Source: an uncultured Verrucomicrobiae bacterium | GTDB lineage: Bacteria > Verrucomicrobiota > Verrucomicrobiia > Chthoniobacterales > Terrimicrobiaceae | Assembly: GCA_963706955.1 (NCBI GenBank) | Contig: CAVPOC010000008.1 | Location: 96,001 to 160,000, forward strand | Direction of reading: 5' to 3' | DNA: 64,000 nucleotides | Shown here: piece after piece, positions 1 to 44,822 of the stretch | Layout of the letters: each line of letters starts with the position of its first letter | How positions within the stretch are numbered: position 1 is the first letter of the stretch | Position numbers and translations under genes: made by a program | Notes under the pieces: model-generated | Database searches by the model: none | Seen by the model: only the letters and a program-made list of their open reading frames with translations | Told to the model about the DNA's origin: nothing

Positions 1-2
1 AC

Positions 3-557
3 GACAATGCCAAAACAGCGAAGTTAAAGGCCGATCCAGACAACTCCATTCGGACCCTGGCCGGCATTGTCGCCGGCACGGGCACCACCTTCGCAACCGT
101 TACAGCGAGCAGCCTCGAGCTCAAAAAGGGAAACACGTCAACGGTCCAAATCACAAATGATGGCGTCATAAGAAGTCCGAAATGGAAGGTGACAGAGATA
201 TTCAAGAATAGACGCGCCGAGGCTACGGAACCCAACACGGTTTTCTTTACGAACAACAATCAATTCGAATCTGCCGGCGGCACCTTGCTGATTTTCGCGT
301 CTGGTTCCGGGACGGCAAAACAAATTCCGGCAGGTCAATCCGTCGTCATCGGCGTGCAACTGCTATTGGACGATGCCGGTATTGGCGAAGTCCAAAGCGT
401 CGTTAAGAACCAAGACCCCCAGCCATTTGTGACCACTTTCCTAACTGTCCGCAACGTGGCGTCAGGAATCCATAAGCTGACACTGAAAACTTTGGGAAAT
501 ACGACGGTGGGCGGAAATGACTTTTTCAACGCCACCATCCTTGAACTGCCTTTCTGA
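3..557 (+). CDS. 3' part of a tail-fibre-like protein running in from the left edge; C-terminal ELPF tip domain
   Basis: Frame is open from position 3 (DNAKTAKLKADPDNSIRTLAG...) to TGA at 555-557. Its C-terminal ~140 aa (SPKWKVTEIF, GGTLLIFASGSG, NDFFNATILELPF) align by eye with the C-terminus of 8156-9010. Confidence 0.75.
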   Translation, partial: DNAKTAKLKADPDNSIRTLAGIVAGTGTTFATVTASSLELKKGNTSTVQITNDGVIRSPKWKVTEIFKNRRAEATEPNTVFFTNNNQFESAGGTLLIFASGSGTAKQIPAGQSVVIGVQLLLDDAGIGEVQSVVKNQDPQPFVTTFLTVRNVASGIHKLTLKTLGNTTVGGNDFFNATILELPF

Positions 558-608
558 TTGTCCATTTTGAAGCTGAAGCATCACACATCATAAGATCGAA
601 GACAGCTT

Positions 609-2039
609 ATGCCAATCGATCAAACTTTGCGCGGGCTAGCCCTGGAGATAAATGCATCCATTGATCCAGGCCTAGAGAAGCACCCGCTTCTCGAATATCG
701 CTTCATTGATGGTGCCAGCACCCAAACGATTCTTGCGCGTGTCGAAGGGATACCGCAACCGGATGGTGGAGGCCAGTTGGCGTTTGAAACCAATGCGGGC
801 GGCGATAGCACAACCCTGCGGATGCTTATTGATCGCCAAGGAAACGTGGGCATCGGGACGGAGAATCCGGCGGCTAGGTTGGATGTCGACGGCGACGCGA
901 AGTTCCGCGGCCCGCTATCAATTGAAGGCGCTCTCACCGTAAGCGGTGTCGCGCAAATCGGTGGTGATCTGACCGTGGCGGGCAAGCTGACCGCCGCCAG
1001 CTTCGTGGGTAACGCCGAAGGATTGAGCAATATCACTCCGGCAGATAATTCGGTAACCAGCGCCAAATTAGCCCTCGATCCTGCCTCGCTTAGCAAAGTG
1101 TCAGGCGAAAGCATGGTCGCTCATGACGGCCAGATTGGAATTGGAATCCCGGCTCCTCGTTCCAAGCTGGAAGTTACAAGCGACTGGACTGGTGAACGCG
1201 GTGCGCTCGAATTGTCAGGTCACAAGCCAACGATACGACTTACAGGCGGATCGGACCTAGCAAATCGCTCCTGGATCATTCATCTTGGAGGCAATGGGCC
1301 CGGAGATTTGGAATTTTATAAGAAAAGCCCTTCAGATCGACAATGGATGTTCCGGATGGCACTCACAGAGAGTGGAATCACTAAAATTCCCAAGCTTCAA
1401 CTAGGCAATAAATGGCTTTTGTCGGGAGAGGGCGATGCGCACGCGAACGATGACTGGCTGCGTCTTTTTAGTATCCAGGGCACCGGTTATTTCGGCGGAT
1501 TTGCGGCAGAAAAGCTTTATAGCGGAACTACTACATTTACACAAAAGCTTCAATTAGGCAGTAAATGGCTTTTATCGGGAGCGGGCGATGCTCATGGGAA
1601 TGATGACTGGCTGCGTCTTTTTAATGTCCAGGGCGATGACTATTTCGGCGGATTTGCAGCAGCGAAGCTTTATAGCATAGGGGGTACCGTTCACGGATCA
1701 GACCTTCGCTTAAAGGCAGACGTCTCTTCGCTGGAGCGCATGGTCGATAAAATTCTCGCTTTGCGCGGTGTGCGTTTCAAGTGGCGCAATGCGAGAGACG
1801 AAGATTCTTATCGAATTGGTCTAATTGCACAGGAGGTTGAACGCGTGCTCCCGGAAGTAGTAGAAACAGGGCCAGACGGTATGAAAGGCATTAACGCAGC
1901 CGGACTTGTCGCTGCCATTATCACTGCCATTAAAGACCAGCAGGCCGAACTTAGCGCACTGCGGACCGAATTTGCTCTCTTCACCCTGCGTAAGAGGAAG
2001 GATCCGCGAACGACGTGCCGACCAGCCGATGCTTGTTGA
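609..2039 (+). CDS. Tail-fibre-like paralog 1: conserved N-terminus, shaft, tandem 51-aa repeat, Peptidase_S74 intramolecular chaperone
   Basis: MPIDQTLRGLALE N-terminus; GNVGIGT motif; C-terminal GSDLRLK...GVRFKW...IGLIAQEVERVLPEVV followed by a coiled coil. Confidence 0.85.
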   Translation: MPIDQTLRGLALEINASIDPGLEKHPLLEYRFIDGASTQTILARVEGIPQPDGGGQLAFETNAGGDSTTLRMLIDRQGNVGIGTENPAARLDVDGDAKFRGPLSIEGALTVSGVAQIGGDLTVAGKLTAASFVGNAEGLSNITPADNSVTSAKLALDPASLSKVSGESMVAHDGQIGIGIPAPRSKLEVTSDWTGERGALELSGHKPTIRLTGGSDLANRSWIIHLGGNGPGDLEFYKKSPSDRQWMFRMALTESGITKIPKLQLGNKWLLSGEGDAHANDDWLRLFSIQGTGYFGGFAAEKLYSGTTTFTQKLQLGSKWLLSGAGDAHGNDDWLRLFNVQGDDYFGGFAAAKLYSIGGTVHGSDLRLKADVSSLERMVDKILALRGVRFKWRNARDEDSYRIGLIAQEVERVLPEVVETGPDGMKGINAAGLVAAIITAIKDQQAELSALRTEFALFTLRKRKDPRTTCRPADAC

Positions 2040-2195
2040 CAATCACGGTAGAATCGTCATCGGATGGAGAGGAAATTGCCTCGTTGCATGTGGTCGTGGC
2101 ATTGAGTTCGTCAGGGATGCCGCCGTGGCAGCGGTGAGAAGCATGTGAGAACCGTACTCTCGCCATCAAAATCGACCTCAGACAGGAGATAGCTT

Positions 2196-3452
2196 ATGCC
2201 GATCGATCAGACCATACGTGGCCTTGCTTTAGAAATAGATGCATCCACCGATGCAGGACCGGAAACGCAGCCGCTCCTCGAATATCGCTTCATCGATAGT
2301 GCCAGCACCCAAACGATTCTCGCTCGCGTCATAGGTATACCGCAAGCCAATGGGGGAGGAAAGTTGGCCTTTGAAACTAACGCGGGAGCTGCTGCCACGA
2401 CCCAGCGGATGCTTATCGACAACAATGGCAATGTCGGCATCGGAACGGCCAGTCCCGGAGCCAGATTGGATGTCGCCGGTGACGCGAGGTTCAGCGGACC
2501 ATTGTCACTTCAAGGCGCTCTCAAAGTGGATGGCGTCGCGCAAATGGGTGGTGATTTTGAGGTGGCCGGCGACGGAAAGTTTAGCGGGACGCTCAGCGTC
2601 CAGGGAGCTTTCACGACAAGTGGCGCCGCGAGAATTGGTGGAGACTTGACAGTAACGGGCAGGCTGGCTGCAGCCACTCTCACCGGCGATGGTGCCGGAC
2701 TAAGCAACGTGACACCAGCAGACAATTCGATAACTAGCGCCAAACTAGCCCAGGATCCCGCTTCAATCTCCAAAATCACGGATGGAAAGATAGCCGTTAA
2801 CGCTGACAGATTGGATCTGACCGGCCACACGACCTTGAACGGTTCAATAAACATCCTCAGGGGGCTCACAGCCGGGTCTTTCGAGCAGAATCCCAACTCC
2901 CAAATTTACGGGAATCTGCACGTCCAGGGGAGGTTAACTGCCGGTGTAAAGACGTTCCGGATCGATCACCCACTTGACCCTGAGAACAAGTATTTATCTC
3001 ATTCCTCAGTCGAATCTCCGGACGTGATGAACATCTACAATGGCAACATCACCACGGATACGCAGGGCAATGCGACGGTAGTTTTGCCTGATTACTTCGA
3101 GGCTTTGAACCGAGACTTTCGTTACCAGTTGACGGTAATCGGCAAGCGTGCACAGGCAACTGTCGCTAGCGAAATCGAAAACAACCGCTTTACCATTAGC
3201 ACCGATCTGCCCTACGTGAAGGTCTCGTGGCAAGTGACGGGTGTTCGACAAGATGCTTCCGCTAGAGCTTTTCCGAATTCGGTGGAGGAAGAAAAGCCTG
3301 AGGCTGAGCGCGGTTTGTTCCTGCACCCGGACCATTATGGCTATCCCAGGGAGCGGGGAATCGCTTTCGCGCGGCATCCAGACCGTATGCACCACCCGCC
3401 CGCGGAGCGGCCAAACCTAGTGCCATGCCATAACGCCGCGGCCATCGAGTAA
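2196..3452 (+). CDS. Tail-fibre-like paralog 2 with C-terminal HPLDP domain
   Basis: Shared N-terminus; duplicated shaft unit (VAGDARFSGPLS / VAGDGKFSGTLS); C-terminal KTFRIDHPLDPENKYLSHSSVESPD...FRYQLTVIG...VSWQVTG. Confidence 0.85.
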   Translation: MPIDQTIRGLALEIDASTDAGPETQPLLEYRFIDSASTQTILARVIGIPQANGGGKLAFETNAGAAATTQRMLIDNNGNVGIGTASPGARLDVAGDARFSGPLSLQGALKVDGVAQMGGDFEVAGDGKFSGTLSVQGAFTTSGAARIGGDLTVTGRLAAATLTGDGAGLSNVTPADNSITSAKLAQDPASISKITDGKIAVNADRLDLTGHTTLNGSINILRGLTAGSFEQNPNSQIYGNLHVQGRLTAGVKTFRIDHPLDPENKYLSHSSVESPDVMNIYNGNITTDTQGNATVVLPDYFEALNRDFRYQLTVIGKRAQATVASEIENNRFTISTDLPYVKVSWQVTGVRQDASARAFPNSVEEEKPEAERGLFLHPDHYGYPRERGIAFARHPDRMHHPPAERPNLVPCHNAAAIE

Positions 3453-3490
3453 TTGACTTCTCTCCATGGTCTGAAGAAAAAAGAAAGCTT

Positions 3491-4354
3491 ATGCCCATCG
3501 ATCAAACCTTTCGTGGTCTTGCGCTGGAAATAGATGCGTCCTCTGATCCCGCGCCCGCAGCCCATCCGCTCCTCGAATACCGGTTCATTGATCTAGCCAG
3601 CACCCAAACGATACTTGCACGTATCATCGGAATACCGCAACCGAATGGTCGAGGCCAGTTGGCCTTCGAAACTAATGCGGGAGCTGCTGCCACGACCGAG
3701 CGAATGCTAATCGACAGCAATGGCAACGTGGGCATTGGAACTGAGAATCCCGGAGCCAGATTGGATGTCGCCGGTGACGCGAAGTTTAGCGGACCATTGT
3801 CAATTCAAGGTGCTCTCAGAGTGGAGGGTGTCGCACAAGTCGGTGGAGATCTAAGCGTGACGGGCAAGCTGACCGCCGGCAGCTTCGCCGGCGACGCCGC
3901 AGGATTGAGCAATGTCACACCGGCGAATGGCTCCGTAACCAGCGCCAAACTAGCGTTCGATGCTGCCTCGCTCAGCAAAGTCTCGGGCGGCAAGATGGTC
4001 GTCCAAGGAGATACTGTCGCCATACGCGGACAACTCGAGGTCAACGGAGCTGTCAAGTTTCAAGGGTCCGGGTCGACCACGCCCGGCTCCACCGACTGGC
4101 AGCCTTACCCCGGCAACATCGGCATCTACCTGGACGTGGACACCAGCGCCGGCCAGTTCACCACCACGCCCAAGTATTTTACGTCGCTCGGCGGCAACTC
4201 GCACCACTGGGCGACCACCGGCGTCACCTCTATCTACACGCCTTCGCCCACGGGCTTTCGGGTGTACGTGCGCTGGGCGGACGGCAGCGCCCTGACGCCA
4301 GAGTTTGCCAATTCCCTCCAATGGCACGTTAATTGGCTCGGAGTCGAAGCCTAG
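3491..4354 (+). CDS. Tail-fibre-like paralog 3 with short lectin-like (H-type-lectin-like) tip
   Basis: Shared N-terminus; ~95-aa Trp/Tyr-rich tip (GIYLDVDTS..FTTTPKYFTSLGG..HW..G..IY..GFRVYVRW). The lectin assignment is inference. Confidence 0.8.
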   Translation: MPIDQTFRGLALEIDASSDPAPAAHPLLEYRFIDLASTQTILARIIGIPQPNGRGQLAFETNAGAAATTERMLIDSNGNVGIGTENPGARLDVAGDAKFSGPLSIQGALRVEGVAQVGGDLSVTGKLTAGSFAGDAAGLSNVTPANGSVTSAKLAFDAASLSKVSGGKMVVQGDTVAIRGQLEVNGAVKFQGSGSTTPGSTDWQPYPGNIGIYLDVDTSAGQFTTTPKYFTSLGGNSHHWATTGVTSIYTPSPTGFRVYVRWADGSALTPEFANSLQWHVNWLGVEA

Positions 4355-4454
4355 CGGAACGGGTTATTGCGAGTCTATGTTCCAGGTGCGCTGCAGAAAC
4401 CAGGCAAGTTGTGTGGCCTTTGCGTTGAGCACGCGGAATCCGCAAGGGACCCGG

Positions 4455-4663
4455 ATCCGGCAAGATGTCTCAGCGAAGGCGTTTCCGAATTCGGTGGAGC
4501 AAGAGAAGCCTGAGGCCATGCGCGGTTTGTTCCTCCACCCGGAACATTATGGCTATCCGAGAAAGCGGGGCATCGATTTGACACGCCAGCCAGATCGTAT
4601 GCACGATCCCCGGCACCGCGGCCACGCCTTGTACCATGCCCTGGCGCTGCGTCCATCGAGTAA
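4455..4663 (+). pseudogene. Orphan 3' remnant of an HPLDP-type fibre gene
   Basis: IRQDVSAKAFPNSVEQEKPEAMRGLFLHPEHYGYP matches the end of paralog 2 (VRQDASARAFPNSVEEEKPEAERGLFLHPDHYGYP), through the ...CATCGAGTAA stop and into the following spacer. Confidence 0.85.
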
Positions 4664-4691
4664 CTAGTTTTCTCCATAGTCAAAAAAAATC

Positions 4692-6155
4692 ATGCCCATC
4701 GATCAAACCTTGCGCGGCCTTGCTCTGGAAATAGATGCATCGCTCGATCCCGTACCCGAAGCTCAGCCGCTCCTCGAGTACCGATTCATCGATCTTGCCA
4801 GCACTCAAACCATCCTTGCGCGAATCAAAGGGGTTCCGCAACCCAATGGTCGAGGCCAATTGGCCTTTGAAACTAACGCGGGAGCGACCGCCACCACCCA
4901 ACGAATGGTTATTGACCATAATGGCAACGTCGGCATTGGAACTGAGAATCCCGGAGCCAGATTGGATGTCGCCGGTGACGCGAAGTTTAGCGGACCATTG
5001 TCGGTGCAAGGTGCGCTCAGGGTGGAGGGCGTTGCGCAGGTCGCTGGTGATTTAAGCGTGACGGGCAAGTTGACCGCCGCCAGCTTTGCCGGTGATGGAG
5101 GAGAGTTGAGCAATGTCCGACCAAGGAACGATTCGGTCGGAGGTGCGCAACTGGCAAGCGACCCGGAATCTCTGAGCAAAGTGTCGGGCGGCAAGATCAT
5201 CGTTAAAGGGGACCGGGTTGGTGTGGGCATGCAAAATCCCGACGGCGATTGCGTCTTTGCCGTGGGAGCTCGTATGAAGGTCCACCAAGGAGACAGTAAC
5301 AGCGCTGGGATTTGGTTTGCTCAAAAAGGAGCAGACCTTCACGCTTCGGCTTTTGTTGGCATGGCAGATGACAACACAATAGGGTTCTACGGCCATGGAG
5401 TGGGATGGGGTCTGAAGATGAGAGGGGATGACGGCTCGGTTACCCTGGCTGGTGCGCTAAGTGTCGGAGGCAAAGTCAGTCTCGCTTCCCTGGGCGTCAG
5501 TGGAGAAATCCGCGTTGCCGGCCGGGATCCCGTCATTGGCGGAGAAGCTCTGCGTTCCACCTTTGGCCGGAGACGATCCGGTGGTTCCTTCGCTCTGAGG
5601 CAGACTTTTCACGATGTGGATATCAATGGCGAAGTCCATTGTAACAAAATTACCACTCCGGCCGGTAAGGGCTTTAAGATAGATCACCCTCTGGATCCCG
5701 AGAACCGGAATCTGTATCACTGGTGCGTCGAATCGCCCGACATAATGAACATCTACAATGGCAATGTGATTACCGACGTTCGTGGTAAAGCGACCGTGGT
5801 GTTGCCGGAGTACTTCGAGGCATTAAACGAGGATTTTCGCTATCAGTTAACCGTCATCGGCCAGACCTCAGTGGCCACGGTCGAACGTGAAATAGAAAAC
5901 AACACATTTACGATTCGAACCGACAAGCCGGAAGTGAAGGTATCCTGGCAGGTGACAGGTCGGCGGCAGGATCCCGCCATCCGCGCGAATCCTCTGCCTG
6001 TGGAGGAAGAGAAGCGCGGAACCGAGCGTGGGTTTGTTGCTTATCCGCAAAATAGAAAGCAGAACAAATTTTCCCTTACCGGTTTCGATAGCGGCCAGGT
6101 AATCGTCAAGACGGAGGAAGGCTGCGAGCATCCCCTGCCCGTGGCTTATTCTTAG
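4692..6155 (+). CDS. Tail-fibre-like paralog 4 with C-terminal HPLDP domain
   Basis: Shared N-terminus; unique middle module (SAGIWF..AFVGM..IGFYG..GWG); KGFKIDHPLDPENRNLYHWCVESPD. Confidence 0.85.
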   Translation: MPIDQTLRGLALEIDASLDPVPEAQPLLEYRFIDLASTQTILARIKGVPQPNGRGQLAFETNAGATATTQRMVIDHNGNVGIGTENPGARLDVAGDAKFSGPLSVQGALRVEGVAQVAGDLSVTGKLTAASFAGDGGELSNVRPRNDSVGGAQLASDPESLSKVSGGKIIVKGDRVGVGMQNPDGDCVFAVGARMKVHQGDSNSAGIWFAQKGADLHASAFVGMADDNTIGFYGHGVGWGLKMRGDDGSVTLAGALSVGGKVSLASLGVSGEIRVAGRDPVIGGEALRSTFGRRRSGGSFALRQTFHDVDINGEVHCNKITTPAGKGFKIDHPLDPENRNLYHWCVESPDIMNIYNGNVITDVRGKATVVLPEYFEALNEDFRYQLTVIGQTSVATVEREIENNTFTIRTDKPEVKVSWQVTGRRQDPAIRANPLPVEEEKRGTERGFVAYPQNRKQNKFSLTGFDSGQVIVKTEEGCEHPLPVAYS

Positions 6156-6346
6156 GCGAGATCTCGTAACACATGGGACCGAGACATCAGTTTGACAAGG
6201 ACCCGCGATCATGCCGACTTTTCATAAGTGTTTTAACATGCACGGCAATCGAATCGTCTCGGAAAGGCTCTAAGGGAAAGTGAGACTTTTCTCTCTGAGA
6301 CTTGTTTCGTAGTCGTTGGAATTCCTCCCGCAGAAAAAAGACAATT

Positions 6347-8086
6347 ATGCCCATCGATCAAACCTTGCGCGGCCTTGCTCTGGAAATAGATGCATCGCTC
6401 GATCCCGCACCCGAAGCTCAGCCGCTCCTCGAATACCGGTTTATTGATTTAGCCAGTACCCAAACGATACTTGCGCGTATCACCGGAATACCGCAACCCA
6501 ATGGTGGAGGCCAGTTGGCCTTTGAAACTAATGCCGGATCGACTGCCACGACCCAGCGGATGCTTATCGACAACAATGGCAATGTCGGCATCGGAACGGC
6601 AAGTCCCGGAGCTAGATTGGATGTGGCCGGTGACGCGAAGTTCAGCGGACCGCTATCCATTCAAGGTGCTCTGTCAGTAGAAGGGACCGCGCAAATTGGT
6701 GGTGATTTGAGCGTGACGGGCAAACTGAGCGCCGCCAGCTTTGCCGGCGATGCAGCCGGATTGAGCAATGTCATACCGGCAGACAACTCCGTAACCAACG
6801 CCAAATTGGCCTTGGATCCCGCCTCGCTCAGCAAAGTGTCGCACGAGGTGATGGTTGCTAGTGAAGCTAATATTGGAATTGGGGCATCCGCTCCGCGGTC
6901 CAAACTGGAAGTCACAAGCGACTGGACCGGTGAACGCGGTGCGCTCGAGGTGTCTGGTCACAAGCCAACGATACGATTTACCGGCGGATCGGATTTAGCA
7001 GAACGCTCCTGGATCATTCATCTTGGAGGCAATGGACCCGGAGATTTGGAATTCTATACAAAAACCCCTTCCGATGCAAATTGGGCTGCCCGCATGCTGC
7101 TGACGCAGCACGGGGTGAACGTCGTTGGATCACTTTCCGGAACGAGCAATAACCCAGGGCTTGCCGGCGTTCACGGTGTGCACACGGCCGGCCAAGCGGC
7201 CGTCATCGGAACGAGCGATGCGGGACGCGGTGTCCTTGGAATCAGCAAAACTGGACAGGGCGTCTGGGGGGCGAGCGAGTCGTCAGCAGGTGTGGTGGGA
7301 GTGAGCGTGAAAGGGGAAGCTTTCAGAGGGGAAGGAGTTTCCGGTGTCGTGGGAATAGGCAAGGGCTGGGTGGGGGTTTACGGGGAAACTAACGGAGCGC
7401 GAAACGTTGGCCCGGCCGGCGTGTGGGGCGAGGGAAAACAATCGGGAGACGGCGTCAAGGGAGTGACCAGCGCCGCCAACGCTGCGGGAGTTGCGGCATT
7501 TCACCTCACCAATCAGGGGCCAGGCATTTTCGCGCAAGGTGCCCCAGCCGGACTCTTCAACGGAGATGTGACTATCAACGGAAGGTTGCGTGCTTCTGTT
7601 AAATCATTCGTGATTGACCACCCGCTCGACCCAGCCAACAAGTACCTCTCTCATTCCTCGGTCGAATCTCCTGACTTGATGAACATCTACAGTGGCGAGG
7701 CTGTCACCGACAGCGAGGGTCACGCGACTATCACGTTGCCTGACTATTTTGGCGCCTTGAATCGTGATTTCCGTTATCAATTGACGGTAATCGGAAAGTT
7801 CGCGCAGGCGATCGTAGCCAGCGGAATCGAAAACAACCGCTTTTCTATCAAAACTGACCAGCCCGACGTGAAGGTCTCATGGCAAGTAACCGGCATCCGT
7901 CAGGACGCTTCCGCCCGGGCGCTTCCCACCCGCGTCGAAGAAGAGAAACCTGCAGCTGAGCGTGGTTTGTTCTTGCATCCCGAACATTACGGTCATCCCA
8001 GTGACCGCGGAATCGCTTCCAAACATTATACAGAGGCGACGCAAGAGCGGCCGACACTGCAGAACATCCCCAGTTTATCGCAATAG
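6347..8086 (+). CDS. Tail-fibre-like paralog 5 with Gly-Val repeat region and HPLDP domain
   Basis: Start placed at the MPIDQ ATG (6347); GV(W/Y/L)G repeats; KSFVIDHPLDPANKYLSHSSVESPD. Confidence 0.85.
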   Translation: MPIDQTLRGLALEIDASLDPAPEAQPLLEYRFIDLASTQTILARITGIPQPNGGGQLAFETNAGSTATTQRMLIDNNGNVGIGTASPGARLDVAGDAKFSGPLSIQGALSVEGTAQIGGDLSVTGKLSAASFAGDAAGLSNVIPADNSVTNAKLALDPASLSKVSHEVMVASEANIGIGASAPRSKLEVTSDWTGERGALEVSGHKPTIRFTGGSDLAERSWIIHLGGNGPGDLEFYTKTPSDANWAARMLLTQHGVNVVGSLSGTSNNPGLAGVHGVHTAGQAAVIGTSDAGRGVLGISKTGQGVWGASESSAGVVGVSVKGEAFRGEGVSGVVGIGKGWVGVYGETNGARNVGPAGVWGEGKQSGDGVKGVTSAANAAGVAAFHLTNQGPGIFAQGAPAGLFNGDVTINGRLRASVKSFVIDHPLDPANKYLSHSSVESPDLMNIYSGEAVTDSEGHATITLPDYFGALNRDFRYQLTVIGKFAQAIVASGIENNRFSIKTDQPDVKVSWQVTGIRQDASARALPTRVEEEKPAAERGLFLHPEHYGHPSDRGIASKHYTEATQERPTLQNIPSLSQ

Positions 8087-8155
8087 GGCCCTGGGCCGCT
8101 CCCATCGGGAACCCTGCAATCCTAAGACTACCTCGCTGAGAAAGCAGACAGCTCT

Positions 8156-9010
8156 ATGCCAATTGATCAAAGCTTGCGCGGACTTGCTCTGGAAATCGAC
8201 GCATCACTCGATCCCGCACCCGAAGCCCAGCCGCTCCTCGAATACCGGTTCATCGATCTTGCCAGCACCCAAACAATTCTTGCGCGTATCAAAGGAATAC
8301 CGCAACCCAACGGTGGAGGCGAGTTGGCCTTTGACACAAATGCGGGAGGCAATGCCACGAGCCAGCGGATGCTTATTGATAGTAAGGGCAATGTCGGCAT
8401 TGGAACGGAAAATCCGGCGGCCAGATTGGATGTCGCCGGTGACGCGAAGTTCAGCGGACCGTTGTCAGTTCGAGGTGCTCTCACCGTAGATGGTGACACG
8501 CAAATCGGCGGTGATTTGAGCGTAACGGGTTCGCTCACCATAGCCGGCACGAACCTCAGGTTGACAAAAGCGGATTCGGCACGAGCGGTCGAAATCACCG
8601 GTGAAGGCGCAGTGATCAGTCCGATGTGGACTGTGACCCAGGTGTATTTGAATGAGCAGGCGACATCCACACCGTTCCCTGTCCCAGGCCAGCCTATTTG
8701 TTCTCCGAAGCCATTCACAACCGGAGGTGGCACCTTGCTGATTCTGGCGTCGGGGTCGGGAGCCGCACTCTCAGGGGTGCCGGGACCCATAATTATTGGA
8801 ATGGACTTGTTGCTTGACGATCGTCACGTGGGTAGCGTCCTTAGCCGCGTCAATAACATGACCGAGGCCAAACCATTTATGACCAGCGGTCTGGTGGTTC
8901 GCGGAATCGCTTCGGGATCCCATACCCTTACGCTGAAGACCGCTCCGTCGACGGTCGTTGGCCGCAACGATTTCTTTAATGTGACAATCCTTGAATTGCC
9001 GTTTCAGTAA
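8156..9010 (+). CDS. Tail-fibre-like paralog 6 with ELPF tip domain
   Basis: Shared N-terminus; tip homologous to 3-557 (GGTLLILASGSG...NDFFNVTILELPF). Confidence 0.85.
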   Translation: MPIDQSLRGLALEIDASLDPAPEAQPLLEYRFIDLASTQTILARIKGIPQPNGGGELAFDTNAGGNATSQRMLIDSKGNVGIGTENPAARLDVAGDAKFSGPLSVRGALTVDGDTQIGGDLSVTGSLTIAGTNLRLTKADSARAVEITGEGAVISPMWTVTQVYLNEQATSTPFPVPGQPICSPKPFTTGGGTLLILASGSGAALSGVPGPIIIGMDLLLDDRHVGSVLSRVNNMTEAKPFMTSGLVVRGIASGSHTLTLKTAPSTVVGRNDFFNVTILELPFQ

Positions 9011-9067
9011 GCATCCAATCGCGACACCAGCAGCACCGATTAAACGACCTAAGGAAGGAGACAGCTT

Positions 9068-10495
9068 ATGCCAATCGACCAGACCTTACGGGGTCTTGCT
9101 CTGGAAATCGACGCATCCGTCGATCTCGCACCCGAAGCCCAGCCGCTCCTCGAATATCGGTTCATCGATCTTGCCAGCACCCAAACAATTCTCGCCCGCA
9201 TCAAAGGGGTCTCGGTCTCGACTGGCGGAGGCAAGTTGGCTTTTGAAACTAACGCGGGCACCGCTGCCACGACCCCGCGGATGCTTATTGACGATCAGGG
9301 CAACGTGGGCATTGGAACCGAGAACCCGGGAGCCAGACTGGATGTCGTCGGTGGCGCAAAGTTCAAGGGTCCGCTCGATATTCAGGGAGCTCTCACCGTG
9401 AGTGGCGTCGCGACGATTGGTGGGAATTTGACGGTCAGCGGAAAACTGACGGCAGGCAGCTTTGCGGGCGACGCTGCCGAATTGAGAAATGTCACACCAG
9501 CGGACGGCTCTGTGACCAACGCCAAACTCGCCCAGGATGCCGCTTCGCTTAGCAAAGTGACCGGCGGATCGATGGTCATGAGCGGCGGGAAGCTTGCCAT
9601 CGGAACCGAAAATCCGATCGCGAAGTTGCACATCCGGTCAGCCGCTGGTGACGTCCTCCCGCCACGCTTAGAGGCTTCGGACGCCGCAAGTTTCGCCGCT
9701 GGCTGGGACTTTTATCATGAGACCGCAGGGAAAGGTTACGTCGGGGTGCCAGGTTCCGCGACGGGGATCGCTCCGGGGGAGATGCTGCTCTTCGGGTCGG
9801 CGGGAACCAAGCTCTCGCTGTGGGCAGGAGGAAACAGAAGTCTCACCCTGGACACGAACGGCAACGTCGGCATCGGGACGACCGACCCGACTCACCGCTT
9901 TCACGTATCGGCGCCTGACGCCGTTGGGCTGTTTGAGTCCACCGGAAGCCAGGCCTATTTGCGACTGACCACCAGAGAAGGACTCGACAACCGAGTGGAA
10001 ATTACGAACCGACCCGGTGGACGATTAAGCCTATGGACGCCCGCGGGGGATGTATTAAACATCACCAGAGCGGGAATGGTCGGCATCGGCACCATCGCGC
10101 CGAGTTTCAACCTCGATGTCGCTGGCTTCGCTCATGCATCGAGCTTCCCGACCTCCTCGGACGCAAGATTCAAGACGAACGTCGCTCAAGTTCGCGGCGT
10201 TCTTGAGAAGCTGAAGCAGGTTCGTGCGGTTTTCTTCGAGTGGAACGAGCATTATCGAACACTCGGCCGTTCAACCGGAAAGCGGGAAATCGGCGTGGTT
10301 GCTCAGGAGATCGAAGCTGTCTTTCCCGAGTTGGTAACCGAGTGGGGTGATAAGAAATACAAGGCACTTGACTACGGCCGCCTGGCCGCAGTCCTACTCG
10401 AAGCGGTCAAGGAACTTGCGGCGCATAGTGAGATCTTGAGCCAACAGGTCCGAGACCTGCAAAAGGCAACCGCACGCAATATGCCAAACTGCTAG
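9068..10495 (+). CDS. Tail-fibre-like paralog 7 with Peptidase_S74 chaperone
   Basis: Shared N-terminus; several GNVGIGT/GMVGIGT motifs; SSDARFK...IGVVAQEIEAVFPELV...LDYGRL. Confidence 0.85.
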   Translation: MPIDQTLRGLALEIDASVDLAPEAQPLLEYRFIDLASTQTILARIKGVSVSTGGGKLAFETNAGTAATTPRMLIDDQGNVGIGTENPGARLDVVGGAKFKGPLDIQGALTVSGVATIGGNLTVSGKLTAGSFAGDAAELRNVTPADGSVTNAKLAQDAASLSKVTGGSMVMSGGKLAIGTENPIAKLHIRSAAGDVLPPRLEASDAASFAAGWDFYHETAGKGYVGVPGSATGIAPGEMLLFGSAGTKLSLWAGGNRSLTLDTNGNVGIGTTDPTHRFHVSAPDAVGLFESTGSQAYLRLTTREGLDNRVEITNRPGGRLSLWTPAGDVLNITRAGMVGIGTIAPSFNLDVAGFAHASSFPTSSDARFKTNVAQVRGVLEKLKQVRAVFFEWNEHYRTLGRSTGKREIGVVAQEIEAVFPELVTEWGDKKYKALDYGRLAAVLLEAVKELAAHSEILSQQVRDLQKATARNMPNC

Positions 10496-10600
10496 TAGTA
10501 ATTTCTCCAGTGTGATAATGCCCGACTGCTATTTTGATTCTCAATAGGACGATTATTGCCTCTACTGAGTAGCAGCTATCGGAATCGACTAAGGTACTTT

Positions 10601-12173
10601 ATGCCAATCGATCAAACCTTGCGCGGGCTTGCTCTGGAAATCGACGCATCCAATGACCCGGCCCCAGAAACGCAGCCGGTCCTTGAATATCGCTTCATCG
10701 ATCTTGCCAGCACGCAAACGATTCTCGCTCGCGTCAAAGCAATACCGCTAGCCAGCGGCGGAGGCGAATTGGCCTTTGAAACCAACGCAGGAACCGATAC
10801 CACGACCCCGCGGATGCTTATTGACGATCAAGGCAATGTCGGCATTGGAACGGAGGAACCAGCCGCCAGATTGGAAGTCGCCGGCGACGTCAGATTCAAC
10901 GGCCCGCTCGATATCCAAGGGGCCCTCACCGTAAGTGGCGTCGCCACAATCGGTGGCGATTTAAACGTCGCGGGAAAACTGAACGCAGGCTAGCTTTGCG
11001 GGTGATGCGGCCGAATTGCGCAATGTCACACCAGCAGACGGCTCTGTGACCAATGCGAAACTGGCCCAGGATGCCGCTTCGCTTAGCAGAGTGACCGGCG
11101 GATCGATGGTCGTCAGCGATGGCAGGCTCGGAATCGGAACCGAAAATCCGATCGCGAAGTTGCACATACGGTCAGCCGCTGGTGAAGTCCTCCCGCCACG
11201 CTTAGAGGCTTCGGACGCTACAAGTTTCGCCGCTGGCTGGGACTTTTATCATGAGACCGCAGCGAAAGGTTACGTCGGGGTCCCAAATTCCGCGACGGGG
11301 ATCGCTCCGGGGGAGATGCTGCTCTTCGGGTCGGCGGGAACCAAGCTCTCGCTGTGGGCAGGAGGAAACAGAAGTCTCACCCTGGACACAAACGGCAATG
11401 TCGGCATTGGAACGACTGATCCCGACCGACCTCTCGCTATAACGGCGGTCCGCACATCCCAGGAGTTGATTAGCTTCAAAGATCCGAGTGGTGTCACCAG
11501 ATGGCACATCAACCAAAACTTGGGCGGGTCGTTTGCGGGCTTGAACTTCGTGGAATCACGCGTGGCCGACGGCAGGCTGTTTCTTAAAGCCGGCGGGAAT
11601 GTGGGCATCGGAACAGTCAATCCGGAACGCAAGCTGCAGATTGGCGACGATGTTATTGGTTTGGGTTTCGACCCGGGAACCTCGCCCAATGCAGGTGTCC
11701 TCCGTTTCGGCGACAATACCGGATGGAAATTGCATTTCGGCCGTTCCCGCGAAGCGAGCGGGGGTGCGCTGAATCGCGGGACCGCTGGGTTACTGATGAC
11801 GATTCAGGATAACGGCAACGTCATTGTGAAGGGGTCGGTTCAGGCTCGTAGCTTTCCTACGACGTCCGATGCAAAGTATAAGACCGACATCGCACCTTTA
11901 ACTGGTGTCTTGGCAAAATTGGACAAGTTGCGCGCAATAGTATTTTCGTGGAATGGTCTGCCTGAGTCTCAAGATCACTGCGCGGACCGCAAAGAAATTG
12001 GAGTTATCGCCCAAGAGGTCGAAGCCGTCTTTCCTGAATTAGTGACAACATGGGAGGGGCGCTACAAAGCAGTTGAGTATGGTAGGTTCTCCGCCGTGCT
12101 CCTTGAGGCTGTTAAAGAGTTGAAGGCAAAGGTTGATGCCTTGGCGCAGAGAACTGCACCGTTAGGATCTTGA
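10601..12173 (+). pseudogene. Tail-fibre-like paralog 8 with Peptidase_S74 chaperone, split by a +1 insertion (real or assembly error)
   Basis: GCA GGC T AGC TTT at 10985-10997 versus GCA GGC AGC TTT in paralog 7. The extra T at 10991 creates TAG. The downstream frame continues to TSDAKYK...IGVIAQEVEAVFPELV. Confidence 0.8.
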
Positions 12174-12218
12174 GCAAAGGACGATTCGATAGATCCAGAG
12201 CCTCAGAACGAACAAATT

Positions 12219-12449
12219 ATGCAACAACAGATCCAATCCAGGATTGCGGTTTTAAAAAGTGAATTCGAGACCGGCCAAACAAAACTCCAGGAACTCGAAC
12301 TGCAACAGTCACGAATCCGCGAAACGCTCTTGCGCATCAGTGGCGCCATCCAGGTCCTCGAGGAGATGCTCGAGTCAAACAAAGCCGAGGAAGAACCGGC
12401 GCCGAACGACTCCGTTCCGGCCGAACCCTCCGCCGTTGGCAAGGGCTGA
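12219..12449 (+). CDS. Small coiled-coil protein closing the fibre array
   Basis: MQQQIQSRIAVLKSEFETGQTKLQELE...ETLLRISGAIQVLEEML; heptad pattern; I recall this motif next to tail-fibre genes, not verified by search. Confidence 0.75.
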   Translation: MQQQIQSRIAVLKSEFETGQTKLQELELQQSRIRETLLRISGAIQVLEEMLESNKAEEEPAPNDSVPAEPSAVGKG

Positions 12450-12766
12450 CGCTTTTCACCGAAGCCAAGGCACCATCCGCCGGGCGGTGGGCTCTACCTC
12501 GAAGCTGGACGAGGCGAACTCAAAGCATGCTCGTGCGTTCGAAAACGAACCGGCGACCCAAAGTCAGCGATGGGAAACCCATCTGCGCGCCCAAAGCTTC
12601 GACGTGTCGGTGCTTTGATTATCGTCACTCCTCTGAGTTCTCGGTGGTCAGGATAGCTGGGATCCAACCAAGTTTCTCATCCTCGCAAAGATCCGGCCGA
12701 GAGGACTCGAACTAAGGCCCGCCTCATCGAAACGGTTGGCGTGAGTTCGGCATCAATGAATCTGAG

Positions 12767-14008
12767 TCATGCAAAACGGTTTTTTGAGAGATATTTCGAC
12801 CACCCTGTCCTCTGATCAAAGGAGAGCTTCTCGTAGGTCTTCCTCACACTGTCGAAAGAGTAATTGGATGTTGGATACCAAAAGGCGAGGCCATGAGAAT
12901 TCTGAACTGCTGGGCCGAGAGCGGCCGAATGGATGCGACTATCGTCAAATGCGGCGATAATTTGATCGCAACTAGCCTTCACATCCTCTGCAGTTGCCGT
13001 GGATTTTAGTTTTTCGGCAAAATCGCGAATGTCAAAGGTATCGCGCCGCGCGAAAGACTGTGAATCAAGAACGGCTAACTTTAGCCACTTCATGCCTTCG
13101 GTAGCATGAGGACTAAGGACGTCCACCAGCCCTTTCATTGCATCCGTTAGTTGATTATCGGTCCGAAACGCAGCGAGGGTGCATGGAAATTGATCTGGTC
13201 GATTTTTGTAGCCAACTTCAAACCCTTCGACGGCTTGTCTGGCCCACTCGACTGCATCTGCCGGGGGCGAGTCGCTCATCAGACCAAACCACTCGTGGTA
13301 CTCCCACCCGTCTCCTGGTTCGAGATCCTCCGATCCGACGACCACCTCGGCGAATTCCTTGAACTGATCCAAAACCTCAATCATCCCATTTAGACAGGTA
13401 TCCGAAAAAATCAGATCAACCTTTTTTCCCTCCATTCCTGCCCTCGAGAAAGCCGCCTTGAGAACACCGTGAGCCTCATAATTGGTCAAAACGCCACCGT
13501 TTGTGTCATCATGCAGCATTGCGCGCAGCTCGGGCTCAGCCGCGAGCTTCGAAGGGGAGACGAACAGCTGTCGCGCCGGCACAGAACGACTGCGACGATG
13601 GCGCGGAACAGCCCTCAACCGACGTTCCAGATACGTCTCATTCGGATCGTGCTCATCGAAGACACCGCTTCCGTGATCCCAAAACCCGATCGCCTTGTGA
13701 GGCACTTTCTTCGTTGTCACCAAACTTCGCGCGAGAAAGCTGGCCAACGTTTCGGGATCGCCGGTATCAATCTCTCCGAGCGATTCGACAACATGAAGGC
13801 CCGCGCTCGGGGTGAGAGCCATGACTTTGGCCTCGCCATCTTCGAAGTCTGAAAGGGCGATGACTGCGAAGGGACCCCTGTTGCCTGCAGCCATTTCTTG
13901 AAGGTCTTCGATGACATATGCATTCAGGTTATTGTCGCCACCGAAGATCTCGATGACTACGTGGGTTACATTCGAAAGATCAATGGGAATGGGTATGGGC
14001 GTTGCCAT
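12767..14008 (-). CDS. Clostripain-family (C11) cysteine peptidase
   Basis: GGDNNL, WDHGSG (catalytic His), FSDTCLNG (catalytic Cys), GSEDLEPGDGW. Confidence 0.85.
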   Translation of the reverse strand: MATPIPIPIDLSNVTHVVIEIFGGDNNLNAYVIEDLQEMAAGNRGPFAVIALSDFEDGEAKVMALTPSAGLHVVESLGEIDTGDPETLASFLARSLVTTKKVPHKAIGFWDHGSGVFDEHDPNETYLERRLRAVPRHRRSRSVPARQLFVSPSKLAAEPELRAMLHDDTNGGVLTNYEAHGVLKAAFSRAGMEGKKVDLIFSDTCLNGMIEVLDQFKEFAEVVVGSEDLEPGDGWEYHEWFGLMSDSPPADAVEWARQAVEGFEVGYKNRPDQFPCTLAAFRTDNQLTDAMKGLVDVLSPHATEGMKWLKLAVLDSQSFARRDTFDIRDFAEKLKSTATAEDVKASCDQIIAAFDDSRIHSAALGPAVQNSHGLAFWYPTSNYSFDSVRKTYEKLSFDQRTGWSKYLSKNRFA

Positions 14009-15184: not shown

Positions 15185-15409
15185 ATGGATCCGATCATCA
15201 ACCTCGAGGAAACACCCGGCAAGACGGTCGGGCGGAGACGAGTCGCTGACGGATTCCGCTTTGGTATGGGACTTCAGAAGGCAGGCGCCTCGTTTCGGCA
15301 AGCGCTCGGCGTTCCCAAAGGAGTTTATCGGTTTCACTCACATGAGGAGGCAAACGATTGGCTGATGACGAAGATCGCCGAAGCGGCAGCGAGGAAGAAT
15401 CGGAATTAG
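15185..15409 (+). CDS. Small protein, putative partner/antitoxin of the downstream nucleotidyltransferase
   Basis: 74 aa with PKGVYRFHSHEEANDW motif; overlaps the next ORF. Confidence 0.6.
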   Translation: MDPIINLEETPGKTVGRRRVADGFRFGMGLQKAGASFRQALGVPKGVYRFHSHEEANDWLMTKIAEAAARKNRN

Positions 15410-15891
15410 TCCCGAGACCGCCGGTTGAAGAGGATCTCGTCGCGCTCTGCCGGATCCTAAACAAACTCGGCGCACGCTACCTGGTGATCGGCGGTTACGC
15501 AATCATCCATGCCGGATATCCGAGATTCACCGGGGACCTTGATATCCTCATGGACACCGCGCCTGAGAACGAAGCGAAGATCTATATGGCGCTTCGGAGC
15601 CTCCCCGACCGTGCGGCGGACGAACTCGACCCCGGGGACGTCTCCAAATACACCGTTGTTCGCGTGGCGGATGAGATTGTAGTCGACCTGATGAAATCCG
15701 CTTCCGGGATCGGTTATGAGGAAGCATCCAAAGATATCATCGTCCGAAAAATCGGCGATGTTGAAATTCCGTTCGCCTCGCCTCGCCTCCTTTGGCGCAT
15801 GAAGAAGAACACTCGCCGAGAGAAGGATGCTGGAGATTTGTTCTTCTTGCGAAAGTGGTTCGAAGCTCGCGGCGAATCTCCCCCGGAATAG
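15358..15891 (+). CDS. Pol-beta-superfamily nucleotidyltransferase (DUF6036/AbiEii-like)
   Basis: YLVIGGYA...PRFTGDLDIL...MK..RREKD.GD motifs. Confidence 0.8.
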   Translation: MADDEDRRSGSEEESELVPRPPVEEDLVALCRILNKLGARYLVIGGYAIIHAGYPRFTGDLDILMDTAPENEAKIYMALRSLPDRAADELDPGDVSKYTVVRVADEIVVDLMKSASGIGYEEASKDIIVRKIGDVEIPFASPRLLWRMKKNTRREKDAGDLFFLRKWFEARGESPPE

Positions 15892-44301: not shown

Positions 44302-44822
44302 CTCTTGCCTTAGCCATTGGCTATCCAAAACTGCCAAACGTGGGTGCCTTGGCCACGTGAGAGGCCGTGTTCACGTAAGCACTTATATCCGAACAGGGCC
44401 GGAAAGGTCAAGTCCAGCAACGGATACGAATTTGGTTTGCGCGCTGTCGCGGATGGTCAACACAGGTTTTCATCCGGTCGGCGAAATAAGGTAAGCGTCG
44501 GTGAAGAGCTCTCAATTTTAAGGTCAGCGCGGTCACTGAGATTAGCAACAAACTGAGCGAGGCGCTGGGGCGCTTTGCCCATCGCTAGCTCGAGAGCGGA
44601 GTATTATCCCTATCTGATCCTGAGTCTAACCCGAAAGAGATACATTACAAAAGAGGATGGCCTATCCTTACAAGAGGGAATGCCAAGAGGAAGACCAGTA
44701 GCAGCAATTGTTCTGAGCCCTGCAATTACATCGCCCAGAGCTGAAGGCGCGATTCAAACGGCGCAATTGTTCAAATCCTAGACATCACGCTCGTGACATC
44801 GCTACAGCTTGCCTCGGCCAAG

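Follow-up and report, generated by a model that had tools for sequence, protein, structure and literature searches.

For most particles of extracellular contractile injection systems (eCIS) the target has yet to be established, and it is through the baseplate anchor that fibres enter the current eCIS catalogue (Nachmias et al. 2026, PMC12923769). Of the loci catalogued there, 23.4% carry several fibre genes, with a maximum of five per locus. Binding of the eBAP3 fibre shoulder to the baseplate protein Tail_P2_I is described there from models, and eBAP1/2 loci are said to be without Tail_P2_I (PMC12923769). Branched or segmented fibres are known from phages and were not found for eCIS in the literature searched. 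The locus described below straddles the left end of a 64,000-nucleotide stretch of DNA (the window) from an uncultured Verrucomicrobiae bacterium of a soil lineage (genome G000). Its order is baseplate genes, one (primary) fibre with an eBAP3-like anchor, eight fibres without a recognisable eCIS anchor and a 76-aa coiled coil.

Architecture and assembly of the fibre array

A preliminary description made from the window had listed eight tandem, co-oriented fibre-like genes, each with its own start and together ending in four kinds of C-terminus, all of which was borne out. MPIDQ begins each of the eight ORFs (Table 1), most of which are preceded by an A/G-rich stretch resembling a ribosome-binding site, and the intergenic gaps in the array span 38-337 nt. 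The four tip classes are a C-terminal Peptidase_S74 domain with SDxxxK (three of the eight, genes 1, 7 and 8), an IDHP domain outside named families (genes 2, 4 and 5), the small tip of gene 3 and the C1q-like head of gene 6. Other points had to be revised. The supposed ninth, partial gene with a related tip encodes a different kind of protein, the primary fibre, which has no MPIDQ start, and gene 8 is split in the present assembly into 10601-10993 and 11016-12173, in different frames. The base at 10991 is absent from contigs of two independent studies, and the gene 8 orthologue is intact in relatives.

Table 1. Features of the eCIS locus and fibre array (window positions unless a contig is named)
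Feature	Position	Strand	Description
eCIS operon, left of window	CAVPOC010000008.1 79303-95472		AAA ATPase, Pvc16_N, sheath, tube, two unnamed genes, CIS_tube-LysM, VgrG, PAAR, gp25, Baseplate_J, wedge, Tail_P2_I-like
Primary fibre gene, 3' part	1..557	+	Whole gene 342 aa, CAVPOC010000008.1 95529-96557; start 472 nt left of window
Secondary fibre 1	609..2039	+	476 aa; module aa 1-45 = 609-743, shaft, Peptidase_S74 chaperone with SDxxxK
Secondary fibre 2	2196..3452	+	418 aa; IDHP-type C-terminal domain
Secondary fibre 3	3491..4354	+	287 aa; small tip without family assignment
Remnant, 3' end of lost IDHP-type fibre gene	4419..4604	+	66% over 68 aa to gene 2 tip
Secondary fibre 4	4692..6155	+	487 aa; IDHP-type end
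Secondary fibre 5	6347..8086	+	579 aa; Gly-rich repeat shaft, IDHP-type end
Secondary fibre 6	8156..9010	+	284 aa; C1q-like head, paralogue of primary-fibre head (47% identity)
Secondary fibre 7	9068..10495	+	475 aa; several GNVGIGT repeats, Peptidase_S74
Secondary fibre 8	10601..12173	+	Peptidase_S74; frameshift near 10991 in assembly, intact in relatives
76-aa protein	12219..12449	+	Coiled-coil-like

The paralogues differ at 31-62% of synonymous sites, independent contigs bridge seven of the nine array junctions among the contig pieces listed (junctions 4-5 and 6-7 not being among those), and the array recurs in six other genomes. Mis-assembly from strain variants, raised earlier as a means of refutation and checked in contigs and relatives, is therefore out. 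Contigs that join one module to the body of another gene, or that skip gene 6, were seen in two sequencing runs, each as a single contig and possibly as an assembly join at a 35-nt repeat.

Inverted repeats of at least 25 nt were absent from positions 1-12600, and no recombinase or reverse transcriptase family was detected among the ORFs scanned (sets of 13, 19 and 33, part of those in the window). Both results agree with the earlier statements that no invertase, recombinase or reverse transcriptase lies nearby and that diversity is stored as whole genes instead of a shufflon or DGR. Promoter and terminator scans gave results at or below chance.

The array adjoins an eCIS operon

Inspection of the contig to the left of the window, where sheath, tube and baseplate genes had been proposed as a check, revealed a co-oriented operon that ends in the array. 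Sheath, tube, CIS_tube/LysM, VgrG, PAAR, gp25 and Baseplate_J are encoded in this one operon with scores over the Pfam cut-offs (the LysM partner at 26.2 versus 20.9); the Tail_P2_I-like protein matches Pfam (E 0.005) and TIGR02242 (E 7.5e-11) below both cut-offs. Genes for an AAA ATPase, Pvc16_N and DUF4157 (eCIS_core) are present as well, with five eCIS_core matches upstream on the opposite strand, and neither capsid nor T6SS membrane-complex genes were found among the part of the locus ORFs that was scanned. Judged from its genes, the locus is a complete eCIS (Afp/PVC-like) operon, the only one of its kind in the genome, which holds no further copy of the module. Baseplate_J (1179 aa) and the Tail_P2_I-like protein contain extra inserted domains, which in the latter are missing from L038, a distant metagenome contig of 61% GC.

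The primary fibre gene occupies the eBAP3-type position, after the Tail_P2_I-like gene. Its product was modelled (pLDDT 83.7; a prediction without alignment gave pLDDT 30 and was discarded) with an eBAP3-like shoulder, a short shaft and a C1q/TNF jelly-roll head. The head aligned to TNF/C1q folds at a Z of about 10, and the N-terminal part gave a middling match to 7B5H_AA (Z 7.7, rmsd 4.2, 162 aligned). CIS13_fam was matched at E 2e-13, below its cut-off, and DUF6519 was not matched. According to the structure model and fold matches, the protein is short and has no obvious extra branching domain like those of branched phage RBPs; a T4 gp10-like docking domain is not among its listed fold matches, which the head dominates. 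The same head class occurs in 30 of 41 primary-fibre homologues, all the closest included (26 by pattern, 4 by eye), and the 7 of 101 genomes with this primary-fibre type are the same 7 that have strong module matches.

Elsewhere, too, the gene for the 76-aa protein comes after tail-fibre genes, both in CIS loci and in phage tails. In single-fibre CIS loci it adjoins the primary fibre gene; here the array sits between the two. No plasmid match was obtained for it. As a generic fibre companion at loci elsewhere it was rejected as an array-specific hub, and its role may be chaperone-like.

The N-terminal module, shafts and tips

The shared N-terminus has about the length first given (130-165 residues then, about 130-170 now) but is not near-identical: identity to gene 1 is 75-84% over the first 64 aa and 63-79% over 130-195 aligned aa. 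Only residues 1-45 are distinctive, the remainder being generic fibre shaft that starts by residue 55 in genes 1-8; the novel part measures about 45 residues. That it falls outside named families held in family, structure-sequence and ESM Atlas searches, the last giving a best value of 0.94 to unnamed clusters. Genes 1-8 lack an eBAP3/4/5 shoulder at the N-terminus (no CIS13 or DUF6519 match), and the module profile matched neither the primary fibre nor the anchored fibres of L048 and L038. Bearing on whether the module could be an eBAP1/2 helical bundle of about 50 aa, its profile scored nothing below E 0.4 among sequences of solved structures. A simple hydropathy scan of the first 40 aa gave 11-residue maxima of 0.63-1.13, with no signal-peptide-like stretch. 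The shared segment of 45 or so residues is the presumed docking piece.

The matches of the shafts are to phage fibres and to trimeric fibres of solved structure. Residues 51-98 match the MAT structures 8OML, 8ON4 and 8OND, and similarity to MATs is confined to the shaft. PHROG matches of the S74 region are to "long tail fiber protein distal subunit", and from what is known of the family the S74 chaperones of the three secondary fibres would self-cleave. The IDHP domain also occurs in phage tail and virion proteins; searches returned no solved relative, and its best ESM Atlas value (0.96) carries an automatic name without Pfam support. The gene 3 tip, which may be lectin-like, had no significant match among PDB sequences, and the distal part of this gene is 87% identical to a copy in genome G004. 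No secondary tip matched beta-helix depolymerases.

Distribution and evolution of the module

Six of 18 other same-genus genomes have the same layout, with at least 1 to 6 extra fibres each, and in L038 the order recurs with two genes that carry the module. The L038 module is homologous, but the primary fibre there ends in another kind of tip. The array lies within the fibre segment of the operon in L038 and in all seven genomes. This conserved linkage answers the earlier call for a survey of gene neighbourhoods and disposes of the concern that homologues might never lie near tail or secretion genes; together with the adjoining operon it supports both eCIS, the first-named option for the particle, and a multi-specificity receptor-binding set for one particle. 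In G001 and G004 together, four genes that carry the module are located elsewhere than at the operon, and remnants of lost fibre genes are visible in array loci. Three same-genus genomes (G002, G003 and G012) have a sole CIS_tube match of another type and no module match. Of five metagenome loci with a module match, three are close MPIDQ types, one is the distant L038 and one (L042) was rejected as a false match. The distant type was not confirmed in genome or viral contigs, the MPIDQ type was not found in viral contigs, and none of 400 further Verrucomicrobiota genomes gave a match to the profile.

In the module tree the copies from G015 and from G004 cluster by genome, whereas the tip trees group by type across genomes. 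Module identity of the present genome is 41% to G015 and 32% to G004, against 56-87% for distal parts, and among the eight genes the module has pN 0.11 versus pS 0.49 (pS 0.09 in G015). This pattern of clustering indicates concerted evolution, in which gene conversion and purifying selection would keep the modules of one genome alike. In G015 the head of gene-6 type is still 71% like that of the present genome although the module has changed.

The primary fibre comes closest, among the CIS genes compared, to the G015-G004 affinity of the module. Spearman correlations with module identity were 0.95 for the primary-fibre head, 0.61 for the shoulder and 0.24-0.75 for five other proteins, from 10 non-independent pairs in five related genomes that represent about one replacement event. 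The head adjoins the first module on the DNA, and linkage could explain their co-variation. The baseplate proteins are without the divergence pattern of the module, those of G015 being closer to those of MPIDQ genomes.

Proposed docking of the secondary fibres

We lean towards the eight genes encoding secondary (distal) trimeric fibres of the eCIS. These would attach to the particle, with the primary fibre as the likeliest site, and so provide multi-target recognition. The baseplate would bind one primary fibre through the eBAP3-like shoulder, a step for which gene content and fold were observed here. Each secondary fibre would fold as a homotrimer and attach via the first 45 or so residues, much as secondary RBPs do in phage fibres of branched or segmented design. 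Given the likeness of the eight modules, one site should accept each of them, so that tips would be mixed on a particle and several cell surfaces recognised. Duplication, loss and recombination by way of the shared 5' DNA would account for the turnover of the repertoire, of which the pattern is visible. More tentative, and in our view somewhat doubtful, is a plug-and-socket eCIS in which the short primary fibre is a universal socket for eight interchangeable distal fibres that plug in by the 45-residue module, the module being held uniform by gene conversion and, in some lineages, replaced wholesale along with its socket.

The complex of primary-fibre residues 196-342 and gene 3 residues 1-130, three copies each, was modelled at 0.69 (best control 0.00), a level that 116 of 157 solved complexes and 2 of 215 mismatched pairs attain, with runs agreeing in 100% of contacts and partner pLDDT of at least 90. 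It was nevertheless rejected as docking evidence, because all its confident contacts join the artificial C-terminal cut of the module fragment (126-130) and the artificial N-terminal cut of the primary fibre (196-201, 210); these ends are internal in the real proteins, and the model rebuilds a continuous fibre like gene 6. The prediction of homotrimers and complexes proposed earlier thus yielded confident three-copy modelling of both fragments and is neutral on docking by residues 1-45.

Variation of the secondary tips beside a primary head class shared by most homologues counts for docking on the primary fibre, as do the co-variation of that head with the module and the occurrence of both in the same seven genomes. 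Against it we counted the short primary fibre lacking an obvious extra branching domain, the derivation of the head-module co-variation from five related genomes with possible DNA linkage, the G015 gene-6-type head conserved at 71% despite its changed module, and the four off-operon module genes; the differing L038 primary tip counts against the head as universal socket. The last point, that module homologues occur with primary fibres of different tips, would suit a module that itself anchors the fibres directly, as a sixth class of eBAP-like domain bound to baseplate, cap or sheath; the secondary fibres would then stand next to the primary fibre, with no branching. The inserted domains in Baseplate_J and the Tail_P2_I-like protein would also suit it, as does the existence of multi-fibre eCIS loci (PMC12923769), and the outcome, a multi-tip eCIS, would be the same. 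We consider direct anchoring unlikely, given baseplate proteins that do not follow the divergence of the module and, in G015, are nearer those of MPIDQ genomes, and inserted P2I-like domains that L038 lacks.

Free or cell-bound trimeric adhesins, MAT-like, made together with the eCIS and released by lysis, might instead tether, aggregate or sensitise target cells. The shaft matches to MAT structures and the orphan module-bearing copies fit such a role, and MATs too combine a constant N-domain with S74 or non-S74 tips (PMC10769870). A signal peptide, present in all 21 MATs (PMC10769870), is missing by our hydropathy scan, however, and the strict place of the genes in the fibre segment of the operon makes this account improbable. 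Least credible, and in our judgement very improbable, is a reservoir of tip cassettes recombining into one expressed fibre as in antigenic variation. The module-swapping and gene-6-skipping contigs (single contigs, possibly joins at the 35-nt repeat) and the remnants of lost genes speak for it. Speaking against it are the separate start of each gene, purifying selection on the modules, a primary-fibre head class that is constant among close homologues, and the lack of any recombinase family among the ORFs scanned.

Should the module dock on the primary fibre, the eCIS would have a phage-type branched or segmented design. Were the plug-and-socket arrangement true, the target ranges of particles from one clonal cell would be combinatorial, and anchor-based catalogues would overlook an entire class of receptor-binding proteins of eCIS. 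The array is a testable handle on interactions of uncultured soil Verrucomicrobiota with their neighbours, and a short natural docking module, if such it is, would be of general interest to structural biologists.

Comparison with known systems

eCIS loci with an eBAP3 fibre and a Tail_P2_I baseplate (PMC12923769) have the same operon inventory, a fibre directly after the Tail_P2_I-like gene and, as here, S74 and C1q modules on fibres. Every fibre counted in the accessible part of that catalogue is eBAP-anchored, whereas this locus has one fibre with an eBAP3-like anchor and eight without a recognisable one that share a short module. An anchor-based catalogue would miss those eight, and nine fibre genes exceed its maximum of five.

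Branched phage RBPs (phiKp24, and G7C and CBA120 as cited with it, PMC9700779; LtfA/LtfB of DT57C, PMC10713586) likewise pair an anchored primary with secondaries of short N-terminus and varied tips. Genes 1-8 resemble these secondaries in lacking a particle anchor, and binding to the primary would be a further likeness. The phage systems are virions, however, and docking in phiKp24, G7C and CBA120 relies on T4 gp10-like domains located in the long N-terminal part of the primary fibre (PMC9700779), which are not evident in the 342-aa primary. The T4 long tail fibre, gp34-gp35-gp36-gp37, is likewise a chain of separate trimers joined at their ends, with gp36 bound to gp37 in the N-terminal region of the latter, and its general fibre chaperone gp57A (79 aa) is comparable to the 76-aa protein in size (PMC3004832). 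T4 has one distal subunit per genome; here there are eight secondary fibres.

Bdellovibrio MATs (Caulton et al. 2024, PMC10769870) are paralogous trimeric fibres with homologous shaft repeats, a constant N-terminus and S74 or non-S74 tips. They carry a signal peptide and a conserved 130-aa beta-rich N-domain and sit on the cell surface (PMC10769870), whereas genes 1-8 have neither feature and lie inside an eCIS operon. Tailocin clusters may hold multiple tail-fibre genes, proposed to widen target range; R-tailocins carry no cargo, and anchorless fibres with a shared module are not described in the sections of that source at hand (PMC10598620). Set beside these systems, the array would give an eCIS presumed swappable fibres and, probably, many target-binding tips on one particle type.

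The eCIS operon and its primary fiber

Inspection of the contig to the left of the window, proposed earlier as a place to look for sheath, tube or baseplate genes, revealed a complete eCIS operon directly upstream of the fiber array and on the same strand. The operon encodes an AAA ATPase, Pvc16_N, sheath, T4-gp19 tube, two unnamed genes and CIS_tube-LysM, followed by VgrG, PAAR, gp25, Baseplate_J, a second wedge protein and a Tail_P2_I-like gene. By gene content the locus is an eCIS, and this is the only such operon in the source genome (G000), in which the window spans C8:96001-160000. An eCIS is already known from the soil Verrucomicrobia member Ca. Udaeobacter copiosus, listed as "No afp13 in operon" in the available text of PMC8213781. 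Five eCIS_core (DUF4157) matches lie further left on the opposite strand, where several of the clustered genes are apparently fragmented, and four copies are scattered elsewhere (C8:163361, C8:1009431, C13 and C14); the DUF4157 genes of G000 are likely cargo or cargo-associated. Extra domains are inserted in both Baseplate_J (1179 aa) and the Tail_P2_I-like protein; the insert of the latter is doubled in the relatives G009, G015 and G004 and missing in L038, a metagenome locus. A Clostripain-family peptidase gene (Peptidase_C11, E 2.6e-27) converges on the operon end and was not seen at the equivalent place in the relatives' loci.

What the preliminary description took for a ninth, partial gene of the tip-fiber set is a 342-aa primary fiber with a shoulder-like N-terminal domain and a head. 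Its N-terminal domain matched CIS13_fam weakly (E 2e-13, below the cut-off), and the structure model (46 sequences, pLDDT 83.7) aligned with one 7B5H chain of the Anabaena CIS baseplate (Z 7.7, rmsd 4.2, 162 aligned); the head is predicted to be a C1q/TNF jelly-roll (Z about 10). Given these matches, its place behind Tail_P2_I and the lack of a DUF6519 match, the modeled protein most plausibly represents an eBAP3-type anchored fiber in the scheme of PMC12923769, the available text of which describes eBAP3 anchoring on Tail_P2_I from models.

The array of eight fiber genes

Across their first 64 residues, genes 2-8 share 75-84% identity with gene 1, and across 130-195 aligned residues 63-79%, so that the sharing of N-termini noted initially stands but their near-identity does not. 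The four kinds of C-terminus were borne out: Peptidase_S74 with SDxxxK (genes 1, 7 and 8); an unnamed domain, here labeled IDHP, that is also present in phage tail and virion proteins (genes 2, 4 and 5); a small gene 3 tip of no assigned class, putatively lectin-like; and a gene 6 tip with 47% identity to the primary-fiber head. Fibers of such families are trimeric. S74 domains self-cleave, according to the portion of PMC10769870 available. The phage-like shafts hint at bacteria as candidate targets; the C1q head would suit glycans or proteins.

Gene 8 is split across two frames in the present assembly. The base at 10991 is absent from contigs of two of four independent runs, the two that cover the site, and intact orthologs occur in G001, G010, G015 and G004; either faulty assembly or a private mutation therefore explains the frameshift. 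Mis-assembly of the array itself was ruled out by synonymous divergence of 0.31-0.62 between copies and by independent contigs that, among the pieces listed, span 7 of the 9 junctions.

Homologs of the 76-aa protein encoded after gene 8 were found behind fiber genes in single-fiber CIS loci (L048-L050); phage-like contigs carry others in their tail regions (L051-L053, near 10001; 39-55% identity). The protein is a general fiber companion from an unnamed fiber-associated family common to phages and CIS, perhaps a putative chaperone by analogy with T4 gp57A (PMC3004832, available text). In L048 and L049 its gene adjoins the anchored fiber, so that in G000 the eight genes lie as an insert within the fiber segment of the operon.

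Coordinates of features (window positions unless a locus or contig is named)
Feature	Position	Strand
Genes 1-8, MPIDQ-starting ORFs, same orientation	starts 609, 2196, 3491, 4692, 6347, 8156, 9068, 10601	+
Remnant of a further IDHP tip	4419-4604	
76-aa gene	12219-12449	+
Peptidase_C11 gene	12767-14008	-
74-aa + 177-aa gene pair, no Pfam match; presumably an antitoxin + nucleotidyltransferase-like pair	15185-15891	+
440-aa TIR_2 protein	43015-44337	-
928-aa protein, three PA14 domains and InlB-B-like repeats	57999-60785	+
DUF4157 cluster	G000:C8:69367-78681	opposite to operon
Baseplate_J and Tail_P2_I-like genes with inserts	L001 13746-17285, 18315-19472	
Orphan module-bearing genes	L022 9272-10513; L029 15867-17066; L031 15097-16665; L033 13736-14815	
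Arrays from metagenomes, with a fifth kind of tip and, between intact genes, larger remnants of lost IDHP genes	L041 627-2321; L040 1371-2105	

A distinctive N-terminal module

Residues 55-95 of genes 1-8 are generic fiber shaft, their profile matching internal repeats of these and other fibers; solved Bdellovibrio MAT fibers align with residues 51-98. Profile matches to residues 1-45 were confined to N-termini, and these residues are termed the module. As first supposed, it belongs to no recognized named family in Pfam, PHROG, NCBIfam, PDB or the named Atlas families; it contains no signal-peptide-like stretch. A word search returned 149 close homologs, and the 120 of these listed end, by pattern, in IDHP (44), S74 (30), C1q-like (17), gene-3-type (16), what we label a G2-like chaperone (3) or other/truncated forms (10). 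When 1.84 billion representatives were searched by profile, 32 matches emerged, about ten of them distant. Named records bearing the module carry the titles uncultured Verrucomicrobiae or Terrimicrobiaceae, and the DNA occurs mostly in soil and rhizosphere metagenomes, which together suggest the lineage.

Strong module matches were present in 7 of 101 genomes searched, namely G000 and 6 of 18 others of its genus; six more gave weak matches to generic shaft only, 400 other genomes of the phylum gave nothing, and no further copy was found in G000 outside the array. The primary-fiber type occurs in exactly the same seven genomes. Since these genomes are related to one another, and several of them incomplete, the pattern is no statistical test. 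Module genes sit behind the primary fiber in all six relatives (six each in G001 and G010, two in G009, five in G015, four in G004, the first frameshifted, and at least one in G016, at a contig end), and the 76-aa gene ends the array in all five that are complete (G001, G010, G009, G015 and G004). G002, G003 and G012 have a CIS_tube of a different type and no module match; this second type, seen at G002:C109, G003:C25, G010:C4, G012:C15 and G001:C26, has no module matches nearby. In L038 (61% GC), baseplate, P2I and an anchored fiber precede two distant-module genes, indicating that the layout is not confined to the genus of G000. G001 and G004 also contain four single module-bearing genes at a great distance from the eCIS operon; one of these sits directly behind a 980-aa DUF4157 gene.

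Concerted evolution of the module

In G015, all five copies start with one different N-terminus, which is 99% identical between them and has 41% identity to that of G000. The seven G004 copies all begin with yet another, at 75% identity to one another and 32% to G000. The distal parts, in contrast, keep 56-87% identity to the corresponding type in G000. In the module tree these 12 copies split with full support from 24 MPIDQ copies, with poor resolution inside the MPIDQ group; S74 and IDHP trees grouped by type across genomes. Gene order and number vary between genomes, and remnants of lost genes are present. The eight G000 modules gave pN 0.11 and pS 0.49, and G015 modules pS 0.09, values suggesting purifying selection along with recent gene conversion. 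Because it is swapped in all paralogs at once while tips persist, the module behaves like a piece obliged to fit one common partner.

A candidate docking partner

Gene content, domain anatomy, layout conservation and concerted evolution are established parts of the proposed mechanism. The eight proteins would be secondary fibers of the particle, attaching via residues 1-45, probably onto the primary fiber, a reading that we favor by a modest degree. A sliding-window comparison of 13 CIS proteins from five genomes showed that the primary fiber from residue 61 on shares the module's pattern, with G015 nearer to G004 than to the MPIDQ genomes, whereas baseplate proteins do not; in sheath windows G015 also grouped with G001. 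Spearman correlation of identity matrices with the module was 0.95 for the primary-fiber head, above the shoulder (0.61) and wedge, P2I, VgrG, Baseplate_J and sheath (0.24-0.75), although the matrices cover ten pairs among five related genomes and about a single event, and head and module are physically linked on the DNA. Of 41 primary-fiber homologs, 30, all the closest included, retain the head class, but the L038 anchored fiber has a different tip and the G015 gene-6-type head is unchanged.

Attachment via residues 1-45 directly to another particle site is a rather unlikely reading. That the eight are free or surface adhesins is less likely, indeed improbable: module genes follow the primary fiber in every relative, the four orphan genes notwithstanding. 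Recombination cassettes are less likely too, and very improbable; single contigs in two runs fuse one module to another gene's body, possibly through assembly joins. A model of primary-fiber residues 196-342 with gene 3 residues 1-130, three copies each, scored 0.69 (best control 0.00; between-run agreement of contacts 100%; pLDDT of the partner >= 90) against a mark that was attained by 116 of the 157 solved complexes and by 2 of the 215 mismatched pairs. It was discarded as docking evidence, the contacts joining two artificial cut ends only.

Comparison with known systems

Genes 1-8 fell outside the eBAP3/4/5 anchor types and outside MAT membership. Several fibers, up to five, occur in 23.4% of 2585 eCIS loci, and an eBAP domain is what defines each of them (PMC12923769); the available text uses neither "branched" nor "orphan". 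No description of anchorless secondary fibers on an eCIS was found in the literature searched, mostly papers outside subscription. The proposed working of genes 1-8 would resemble that of the secondary RBPs of branched phage fibers (PMC9700779, which also cites G7C and CBA120, and PMC10713586, available portions) and of the distal subunit of T4 fibers, as far as described in the accessible part of PMC3004832.
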